This document shows, piece after piece, positions 15,644 to 18,600 of a stretch of 20,000 nucleotides of DNA. The first letter of the stretch is position 1, and each line of letters begins with the position of its first letter. This DNA is from Vermamoeba vermiformis (taxonomy: Eukaryota). Below the pieces are notes generated by a model. It was not told the origin of the DNA, searched no databases, and saw nothing but the letters and a program-made list of their open reading frames with translations. The stretch is taken from contig JBEWZL010000089.1 in NCBI GenBank assembly GCA_045837725.1, forward strand, positions 109,139 to 129,138, in the 5' to 3' direction. The translations under genes and the position numbers were made by a program.

Positions 15644-18600
15644 ATGAATGTTGCCAATATTACAATGGACAAATACACCAGTCAGCTAGCAGATTCTGTT
15701 TACAAACATGAATTTACGGAGCTGCTTCAAAAACTCATTGCCGACTACTACAACGTAAACAACCTTCCGTATCAATTGCAAACAATCGGCTCTCATGTAC
15801 ACGGAGCGTTACCTTTGGCTCCTGGCCAAGGCTCGGTTACACCGGTTCTCTACCATCTTCTGGGAGATTTAGAAGGCACGGAACTCTTCACCAATTTTAA
15901 GCAATGGGTGACTTCCTTGATTGCAGCTTTTGGGGACCAAGAAAAAAAGCTCGGGGCTATTGTGCAAGGTAAACTCAATGGCTCGTTTTCGGTTTTGCAG
16001 GACTAATGCCTTTCGCAGTGTCGGGATATGGCAAAACACATCTTGCTCGGACGTACACGAGTACTCATCGTGCTATTTACATTCTATTTACCAATGAACT
16101 TGCATCGGCAGATGACGCACGGAATCACCAAGACAATAAGAGAAAAGTACTTGAGTTCTTCGATGAAAAGTTTGCTGCTTTTAAAGACGCTGAGACCTGC
16201 CTTAAAAACGTAAGTGATATGGCTTGGTGACTCGCGTTAATGTGTTGCTGTGTTAGGTCAACTTGGACGACAGCTCTGTAGTCGAGAAAGAGTTCGCTCG
16301 AGTTCTGCGAGTGTCAGAGTTGTGTCGAAGAATTGTTAGATTGTTTTTACTCGCTGCCGTGGAGTATTACACTGACTTCATCGAGAGTAAGTTAGATTTC
16401 ATCTTTTCAGCTTCATAACCCTTTTTCTTCAGTCGCAACACCCCTGATCACCGCGTTTCATCCTGTCGGCAATGGAACAGCCCCCGATCATCCAGATGTG
16501 CTGAAGCTCGGCTCTCTTCTCTTTAATAACAAGTGCCTATACTTTTTCCTCAACAGCAAGCTCCCATCGCTGTACACTCATTACTACAATGACATGTGGT
16601 GGGATAGCTACATCGAATACGTTCGAAATCGTCAATCAGAGTACAGAATCTGCGCTATCTTTTGCGACGAGGTCCATGGAGTACTTAAGCGACATGTTGG
16701 ACTTTGTTTGCACGAAAATGTTCACCAAGCTATCCCTAGAGATTTGCCAGTGTGTAGTAGCAAGCAAGGCAACTTGAAGCAGATCTTCGACTCCTATGAT
16801 GTGGACAAAGATGGCTATTTGCTCTTGGCAGACTTCGAACGGCTTTGCAATGAAAGTTTGCTACCAGGTTTGCCGGAGTCTCCATCCATGTACTGGCAGA
16901 ATGATGTCGCGTTACAATCATATCCCGCAATGAGTTTTAGTAAGTGCGTGGTAACTTACCAAACACTCGATGACTAATGCGTCATGTTTAGCTCATTTTC
17001 TGGGATTGTTTTCTTCAACTGACGCCCAAGAAAAAACGATAAGATATGATGCAAAGGTACTAACGATATTATAATGTTGAAATAACTAACGTCGTCAGTT
17101 GCAAATGTTGCGACGCCGAAAGTACGAAGCAAACGAAGCATCTACATGTGGAAAAAACCCAGCATTTGAAGCACAGTATCATGACGTTATTAGCGTCTAC
17201 AAACACTCGACTTCTCTGACATACCTCATTGCAAACAGCTTGGATTTTATGACAAAGACACTCAGAAACTTCTCCGTATGCACTTGAATTCGTTTCATAA
17301 CCTAATTTCTAATCCATGGTAGAGCATTTGCTTGACAACCAACTACAGTGCAATTCAGTATTACGAACAAAATAACAATACTGCCCGTGGATCATTGCTG
17401 TTCAATGTTTTCAACTTTGATCGAGATCCAAGCCACCTTTTCAACCAATATTCGAAGCTAATCGAGCATCATTTTGGCAAATATTTAACAACAATATTAT
17501 CTGACGCTAAATTACGTGATGCATTCTCAATACGTTCACTCTACATGGCTTATGTAAGACCTTGAAATACTATAGTTCCACATTCTCACATTTCATCAGT
17601 TGTTTGGTGCTTTGCTAAAGAAGGCAAGCAATGCTAGTGAGGCTCTTGAAGAAGCAATTCGAGATTGCAAAGATCGTGCAAGGTCCTATCTTGCGGTACT
17701 TGAAGGCCCTCCATTCTTACAGGTATGTCTGAAGAAGAACACCAACAGTATGGCTAACACACATTCAGTTATATCATCAGGCTGTTCTCTCTGTGATGCT
17801 GCATAATTGTGTCTTAGCACAAAGCTTGGATCCAAAGCATGAGTTAGATCATGGGTGCCTGCCTGTTGTAAAAAAATCATTGGATGAAAAGCACTTTGTC
17901 ATCAAAGACTATTTTATGTGTGCTGAAATACAAGAGAAAGTGACTGCAAATTATGACCTCCTTGCCACGGTAAGCTCTGCTTTTAAGTAGCTTAGACGTA
18001 CTGACAGAATAGGCAATACATACATGTTTCAATGACCAACCCAACCTGGCTGACAAATTTGGTGACGCTTTGATGGCTTACATTGCATTAAAATACAATG
18101 GAAAGTCATTGCGATCAATCTCTGTACCTCAATCATTCTACACACAAGGTCCACAAGATGCCGTGCCTCGTTCTTTTATCAACAATGCTGTAATACAAGT
18201 TGAATCTTGCATGACAACCAACGAATTAGATGTTGATGATTTAATGCTGCTGAATGACCCACTCAAATATATGAAGGGCAAATTGGTTAAATTACAGGAT
18301 ACTACCAAGCCTGATGGGCTTTCTCTTACAGTGTCTGGCTCAAATCTCATTGCAACAGCATGGCAATCAAAGTACTGGGCTTTCACAATTTCTGCCAGTG
18401 ATTTGACCTCTGCTGCTTTATCTCTAAATCCTGCACAGTTCTTTAAAGAAACTGATAACAATTCAACTACTTGGAGGAAGAATTTAATGCAAAACAAACA
18501 GCTCAACCAACTCTGGATTGGCAAGTACATACGAGTGAGTTGCTGTCACTTCTCTATTGGCCATTATTAATTAGATCCTTAGGTTTTTATTGCGCGTAAA

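Follow-up and report, generated by a model that had tools for sequence, protein, structure and literature searches.

The locus described here lies in a 20,000-nucleotide stretch of Vermamoeba vermiformis DNA (contig JBEWZL010000089.1 of assembly GCA_045837725.1, positions 109,139 to 129,138 of the forward strand), which we refer to as the window. The window is eukaryotic nuclear DNA, in which short stop-to-stop frames are joined by GT-AG introns of 42-52 nt. On its forward strand, a gene that we spliced by hand encodes a P-loop nucleoside triphosphatase (NTPase)-like protein, and exon 4 of this gene carries both a Walker B motif and, shortly after it, an EF-hand helix-loop-helix. The nature of this EF-hand, its conservation and its placement relative to the NTPase motifs are the subject of the present analysis.

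Gene model

The gene model comprises the following features.

15644-19044, forward strand: gene spliced by hand; 11 exons, 977 codons plus stop, with the ATG at 15644 and the stop codon at 19042-19044
15969-16018, 16210-16256, 16387-16432, 16940-16991 and 17057-17098, forward strand: introns 1 to 5
17276-17322, 17554-17599, 17723-17768 (alternative acceptor 17780), 17970-18012 and 18535-18582, forward strand: introns 6 to 10
16433-16939, forward strand: exon 4, carrying Walker B and the EF-hand
16940-16991, forward strand: intron 4; 52 nt, GT-AG, with a branch-like CTAAT 13 nt before the acceptor

Donors and acceptors were walked intron by intron within limited ranges of sites, and a single set was found with which the frame stays open as far as 19044; at several introns, alternative in-frame sites likewise leave it open. 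All ten introns are of the GT-AG type and 42-52 nt long, most of them with a CTAAC/CTAAT-like site ahead of the acceptor. Intron 4, which had been proposed in a preliminary description of this DNA, was recovered as the same GT-AG intron by our own splicing. If it is retained, the exon-4 frame meets a stop at 16975-16977, whereas upon its removal the frame reads on through AMSF/THFLGLF (the slash marking the splice junction); judging from the intron phases, leaving out the 21-codon exon 5 together with intron 4 would break the frame. Similarity to P0001, a relative of exon 4 introduced below, ends exactly at the intron-4 donor, which supports an exon boundary at this site. In the resulting protein, Walker A begins at residue 109 and Walker B at residue 290, the EF-hand loop spans residues 338-349, MSFTHFLGLF begins at residue 382, LTYLIANS occupies residues 446-453, and SICLTTNYS begins at residue 466. 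An in-frame alternative acceptor of intron 1 at 16000 would add six residues and yield a canonical, Ala-first Walker A; it was set aside, as the intron would be just 32 nt long and would lose its branch-like CTAAT, and the acceptor at 16018 was preferred. No paralogue of the gene was found elsewhere in the window. Database searches were carried out exon by exon rather than on the spliced 977-residue protein, which weakens every negative result given below.

The EF-hand of exon 4 and its conservation

The EF-hand region contains three elements.

16765-16854, forward strand: EF-hand helix-loop-helix (entering helix, 12-residue loop, exit helix), as delineated by Pfam EF-hand_6/7/1 and AlphaFold2
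16798-16833, forward strand: metal-binding-type loop DVDKDGYLLLAD, with D1, D3, D5, G6, Y7, L8, L9 and D12
16885-17017, forward strand: putative second hand, degenerate and devoid of acidic ligands (SMYWQNDVALQSYPAMSF / T HFLGLFSS), interrupted by intron 4

Forward-strand translation of 16774-16848 gives LKQIFDSYDVDKDGYLLLADFERLC, and every element of the EF-hand observation in the preliminary description is present at the place given there. In the loop at 16798-16833, positions 1, 3, 5 and 12 carry oxygen ligands, position 6 is Gly and position 8 is hydrophobic, as defines an EF-hand loop. The loop begins 43 residues past the Asp-Glu of Walker B, both lying in exon 4. The motif exceeds chance: when all six frames of the 20 kb window are searched, a relaxed EF-loop pattern matches one site only, 16798, and any match at all arose in only 2 of 300 mononucleotide shuffles of the window.

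Sequence searches return EF-hand proteins for the same region. In Pfam, exon-4 residues 114-140 match EF-hand_6 (22.8 bits), EF-hand_7 (23.5 bits) and EF-hand_1 (20.4 bits) with E values of 6e-5 to 4e-4, matches that are specific but lie under the curated cut-offs. A HMMER scan of exon 4 against 1.84 billion representative proteins gave 13 matches at E<=0.001, two of which, P0001 and P0002, are relatives of the gene itself. For nine of the other 11, the best stretch falls within the EF-hand region (query 98-150), while it covers residues 67-144 for P0011 and residues 12-59 for P0005. All six of these proteins inspected by sequence (P0003, P0006, P0007, P0011, P0012 and P0013) are multi-EF-hand proteins; the remaining five (P0004, P0005, P0008, P0009 and P0010) were judged from their matched stretches only (3-13 each). 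Against the PDB sequences, exon 4 alone gave ten matches at E<=1, all weak (best 0.031) and all to EF-hand proteins. A three-sequence profile gave 29 matches at E<=0.1 (best 0.0019), with best stretches within profile positions 90-140; 28 of these are named as calcium-binding or EF-hand proteins or fusions thereof, the other, CCDC81B, not being so named. A metagenome scan with exon 4 yielded four loci, all ordinary EF-hand proteins with 32% identity over residues 111-167 only. No relatives of exon 4 were found among longer annotated proteins or in a viral scan.

Relatives of exon 4 and exon 10 with 64-69% protein identity do occur in other data sets. For exon 4, these are P0001, a 171-residue fragment from a 950-nt contig with 69% identity, and P0002, a 61-residue fragment from a 133-kb contig with 64% identity that is named a Ca2+-binding EF-hand protein in its source. 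The three sequences (window, P0001 and P0002) agree at loop positions 1, 3, 5, 6, 7, 8 and 9, position 12 reads D, D and E, and otherwise only the non-ligand positions 2 and 10 differ. Thus, the ligand positions, whose conservation the preliminary description had made a test of its reading, are kept in both relatives found. Each relative shares 10 of the 12 loop residues and 23 of the 30 helix-loop-helix residues with the window copy, and the level is similar in the Walker B core, where 64 of 81 residues are identical in P0001. P0002, furthermore, passes the Pfam EF-hand_7 cut-off (40.1 versus 30 bits). The relatives keep the exon-4 frame open up to the intron donor, which indicates selection on the protein. 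Judged by these comparisons of sequence, the EF-hand is genuine and selectively maintained.

Structure prediction was carried out on the module encoded by 16720-16938 (73 residues), in an alignment that included both relatives together with five generic EF-hand proteins. In the AlphaFold2 model, a helix at residues 16-26 is followed by a strand at loop positions 7-9, an exit helix at residues 36-45 that starts from loop position 10, and another short strand at 66-68. The mean predicted local distance difference test (pLDDT) score is 65.6, with blocks at 65-77, 76-77 across the loop and about 50 at the second strand. The model is compatible with a textbook EF-hand layout at middling confidence.

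A degenerate second EF-hand, with MSFTHFLGLF as its exit helix, had also been suggested in the preliminary description. In local phmmer alignments of spliced residues 315-415 with the 11 EF-hand HMMER matches, 86 of 88 alignments cover the first hand only; the other two, both with P0006, extend further and set MSFTHFLGLF on LSFDEFAMLF of a genuine second hand. The suggestion thus holds as far as spacing goes, which is compatible and which two alignments run through, whereas overall support for it is thin and the putative second loop offers no acidic ligand. Taken together, the alignments make a ligand-less partner hand plausible, and the module probably consists of one loop with acidic ligands paired with a degenerate hand devoid of them.

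Walker motifs, placement of the EF-hand and possible function

The NTPase motifs and candidate strands are as follows, the three strands having been picked from the sequence by eye.

16019-16041, forward strand: Walker A (P-loop) SGYGKTH, its first codon split by intron 1; SGYGKT at 16021-16038
16654-16677, forward strand: Walker B AIFCDEVH, in which Asp-Glu follows four hydrophobic residues; identical in P0001
17216-17239, forward strand: LTYLIANS, alternative candidate for a sensor-1-like strand
17323-17343, forward strand: SICLTTN, the sensor-strand candidate of the preliminary description, lying past two further introns
17395-17418, forward strand: LLFNVFNF, a possible next strand after SICLTTN

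The protein carries the motif pair of the additional-strand catalytic-E (ASCE) class, i.e., GK[ST] in Walker A (SGYGKT, 16021-16038) and hhhhDE, h being hydrophobic, in Walker B (AIFCDE, 16654-16671), and the Asp-Glu of Walker B points to an ASCE-type ATPase over a Ras-like GTPase. With the acceptor at 16018, the first position of Walker A is Gln instead of Ala or Gly. The Walker A exon gave matches far under the cut-offs to AAA_22 (E 0.073) and DUF7656 (E 0.039) in Pfam and to an AAA family ATPase model (E 0.012) and HdaA (E 0.11) in NCBIfam. Two PADLOC models of PDC-M33C match exon-4 residues 36-79, ending at Walker B, at sub-threshold E values of 3e-4 and 1.2e-3. In the ESM Atlas, the best score for exon-4 residues 1-108 was 0.78, which is uninformative.

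The order reported in the preliminary description, Walker B, then the EF-hand, then SICLTTNYS, stands as reported. The gap between Walker B and the EF-hand measures only 32 residues. To be complete, an ASCE-type core requires one or more additional strands past the Walker B strand; because the gap is too short to hold the remaining core strands, these would lie downstream of the EF-hand, which sits in a stretch of about 170 residues from Walker B to the next candidate core strands. SICLTTN followed by LLFNVFNF presumably resembles the sensor-1/next-strand pattern of AAA+/STAND ATPases, and LTYLIANS appears an equally good sensor-strand candidate. Whether the EF-hand is inserted within the NTPase core is, on this motif reading, a matter of about even odds.

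The present EF-hand shares features with several known systems. In common with canonical EF-hand proteins such as calmodulin-like proteins, neuronal calcium sensors and calcineurin B, it has the three Asp residues of positions 1, 3 and 5, the Gly of position 6, a hydrophobic position 8, an acidic position 12 and the flanking helices; it differs from them in being a single ligand-bearing loop in a 977-residue protein, with Leu at 9, Asp at 12 and a ligand-less partner. The putative insertion site is that of AAA+/STAND ATPases with pre-sensor-1 inserts (e.g., the pre-sensor-1 hairpin clade), to which the weak matches to AAA-type models also relate, yet no such model reaches its cut-off for the present protein, and pre-sensor-1 inserts are known as beta-hairpins or helices and are not known to be EF-hands. 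Miro and the Rab-type proteins RASEF and CRACR2A (EFCAB4B) likewise combine EF-hands and a P-loop NTPase in one polypeptide. In these proteins, however, the EF-hands lie outside the GTPase domain, either N-terminal or between two domains, whereas the present EF-hand follows Walker B and precedes the other candidate strands of the core. EF-hand chains of RASEF and EFCAB4B are themselves among the PDB profile matches (2pmy_A and 6psd_E). A calcium-sensing role of Miro is described in PMC6321465. A targeted literature search, made on titles and the openings of abstracts, found no description of an EF-hand that lies past Walker B but ahead of sensor 1 or the later strands of the core.

We propose, as an interpretation about as likely to be right as wrong, that the locus encodes a conserved, probably ion-binding EF-hand located after the Walker B of an orphan P-loop NTPase-like protein. 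The loop would bind a divalent cation, Ca2+ or, given the Asp at position 12, possibly Mg2+; an ion-driven change in the helix pair could be relayed to the adjacent nucleotide site or to a subunit interface, which would make NTP hydrolysis or protein assembly dependent on the ion. Should the placement be real and the loop bind calcium, the protein would represent a compact case in which an ion directly controls the active site of an ATPase, and would provide a handle on the function of an orphan, lineage-restricted protein. If the placement or the binding is not real, the locus would add another lone EF-hand to those of uncharacterised eukaryotic proteins, an ordinary finding.

Several observations weigh against this interpretation. 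First, the loop is atypical: Leu occupies position 9 in all three sequences, a feature of the window copy that went unremarked in the preliminary description, and position 12 is Asp rather than Glu in two of the three. Leu is unusual at ligand position 9 of EF-hand loops, and Glu is usual at position 12. A PROSITE-style EF-hand pattern fails on the window loop because position 9 is Leu. Second, the window copy scores under every Pfam EF-hand cut-off (25 bits for EF-hand_6, 30 for EF-hand_7 and 25.4 for EF-hand_1), as does P0001 (27.4 bits for EF-hand_7), and the conservation pattern, which looks as expected for a maintained metal site, comes from two fragmentary relatives and thus has weak power. 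Third, structural support is limited: the alignment used for the module model is biased toward the EF-hand fold, and an AlphaFold2 prediction of the whole of exon 4 with the two relatives reached a mean pLDDT of 38.8 and is unusable. With the EF module as query, Foldseek gave no match at E<=0.001 (best 2.3, the top rows being mostly EF-hand proteins) and VIA-align gave nothing significant (best Z 3.6, with unrelated folds mixed in). Fourth, no NTPase family was matched at significance by single exons in Pfam, PADLOC, NCBIfam or the PDB sequences, and the core elements placed downstream of the EF-hand are candidates from motif reading.

The first three of these points bear on what we consider the foremost alternative, tentative and on balance unlikely: that the module is an EF-hand descendant which no longer senses ions and serves as a fixed structural or protein-contact helix pair, the NTPase being active or not. 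Pseudo-EF-hands and EH-type modules are comparable cases. Such a helix pair would fit the Leu at position 9, the prevailing Asp at position 12, the sub-threshold Pfam scores, the partner hand without ligands and the absence of a significant structural match in the searches above. However, all three sequences retain Gly6 and an acidic residue at each of the four acidic ligand positions while adjacent non-ligand positions vary, and the sole change at position 12 is from Asp to the canonical Glu, a pattern that a merely structural pair does not need.

C-terminal region, state of the gene and other features of the window

Two features were noted in the C-terminal part of the protein.

18310-18378, forward strand: PDGLSL...AWQSKYW, a PD...QxK-like motif recognised from its residues alone and the sole nuclease-like candidate of the C-terminal part
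19000-19041, forward strand: basic C-terminal tail GRAKKRRRLTTKLK

The tail GRAKKRRRLTTKLK looks like a nuclear localisation signal. AWQSKYW, the second half of the PD...QxK-like motif, is kept in P0014, a 187-residue, near-length fragment that is the one relative of exon 10 found; none was found among longer annotated proteins.

The preliminary description had likened the protein to Crinkler/RHS-type (CR) proteins and envisaged a nuclease effector under calcium control. According to PMC5289972, CR C-termini have the layout NTPase, helix-turn-helix (HTH) and restriction endonuclease (REase). An NTPase-REase effector of this type, with its nuclease switched on by Ca2+ through the EF-hand, seems to us improbable. 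The order of P-loop region, helical region, PD...QxK-like C-terminal domain and nuclear-type basic tail is loosely like that layout, and the retention of AWQSKYW in P0014 is in its favour. Against it, Pfam has no match at E<=1 within residues 1-108, hence no Crinkler header (PF20147), and it revealed nothing relevant, again including no Crinkler header, in the ten upstream open reading frames tested. No secretion signal was seen either, though none was specifically looked for. Exons 10-11 match no nuclease in Pfam, PADLOC or NCBIfam, nor a solved one among the PDB sequences, and in the ESM Atlas exon 10 falls in unnamed clusters only, below the recognition mark. The protein thus differs from CR modules: in the searches run, neither a Crinkler header nor a REase was detected, CRN proteins showed no sequence link to it, and no homologue was found among longer annotated proteins. 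The CR assignment and the nuclease were therefore not borne out; an effector role and calcium gating are unsupported, and a calcium-gated nuclease is a low-probability speculation. The most elaborate version, an EF-hand pair at the pre-sensor-1 site of an ASCE/AAA+-like ATPase through which a calcium rise (for instance upon membrane damage or infection) would directly switch ATP hydrolysis or oligomerisation of a nuclear NTPase whose C-terminal PD...QxK domain would cut nucleic acid, the whole forming a eukaryotic lineage-restricted conflict system without described relatives, is very improbable indeed.

It is also doubtful, to a degree that we put on a par with the CR effector, that the gene is non-functional or its model wrong; the copy would then be decaying or not transcribed, and its EF-hand-like stretch would be without a current role. 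In three RNA runs under the same species label, no reads fell on the gene, and the interval 12700-19300 received four in all, which is a further point against a functional EF-hand protein, albeit a weak one: the four reads matched at 95-99% only, so that the strain may differ and an uncovered gene is informative neither way. In addition, no annotated full-length homologues were found, and the P0014 contig joins exon-4-like DNA out of frame to exon-10-like DNA. On the other hand, the 11 exons remain open across 977 codons with ten consistent short introns, and relatives at 64-69% identity keep the exon-4 frame, their similarity stopping at the intron donor.

The arrangement of P0014 can be described as follows. 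It opens out of frame (+3, then +2) on exon-4-like DNA that includes the EF-hand region, and then runs straight into the second half of exon 10 in the true frame, the two parts corresponding to window positions 16533-16900 and 18343-18540. Its contig is missing a segment past the EF-hand region that corresponds to about 1.44 kb of the window (16901-18342), and no splice-site dinucleotides were seen at the joint. P0014 may stem from a copy that carries a deletion or is in decay, or from an error of assembly; some copies of the gene may thus be decaying, which also counts against our preferred interpretation of a maintained, ion-binding EF-hand.

Upstream of the gene lies another multi-exon gene (12850-15252, forward strand), on which all four RNA reads fall and which has no Pfam match at E<=0.01. 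It stops about 390 nt ahead of the ATG at 15644, and there is no sign that the two form one joint gene. Adjoining frames in the window encode a MORC/zf-CW/Tudor protein, a serine carboxypeptidase S10, a deaminase-like protein and a urea transporter. Two forward-strand frames about 3 kb apart (172-759 and 3118-3615), which flank the MORC/zf-CW/Tudor gene, share about 45 nearly identical residues (…SFIVNSLAKRGLITTDFIDLVEEDNVIELDEVKLCESLT…); both adjoin Asn/Thr-rich low-complexity runs, and neither has a Pfam match. A 69-residue frame on the reverse strand (19384-19593), with no Pfam match at E<=0.1, recalls what we take to be the C-terminal end of pogo/Tc5-type DDE transposases. The window ends in a long GT/AC microsatellite (19850-20000), whose frames read (GL)n, (RV)n and (TL)n, and the GC skew of its last kilobase is 0.39.

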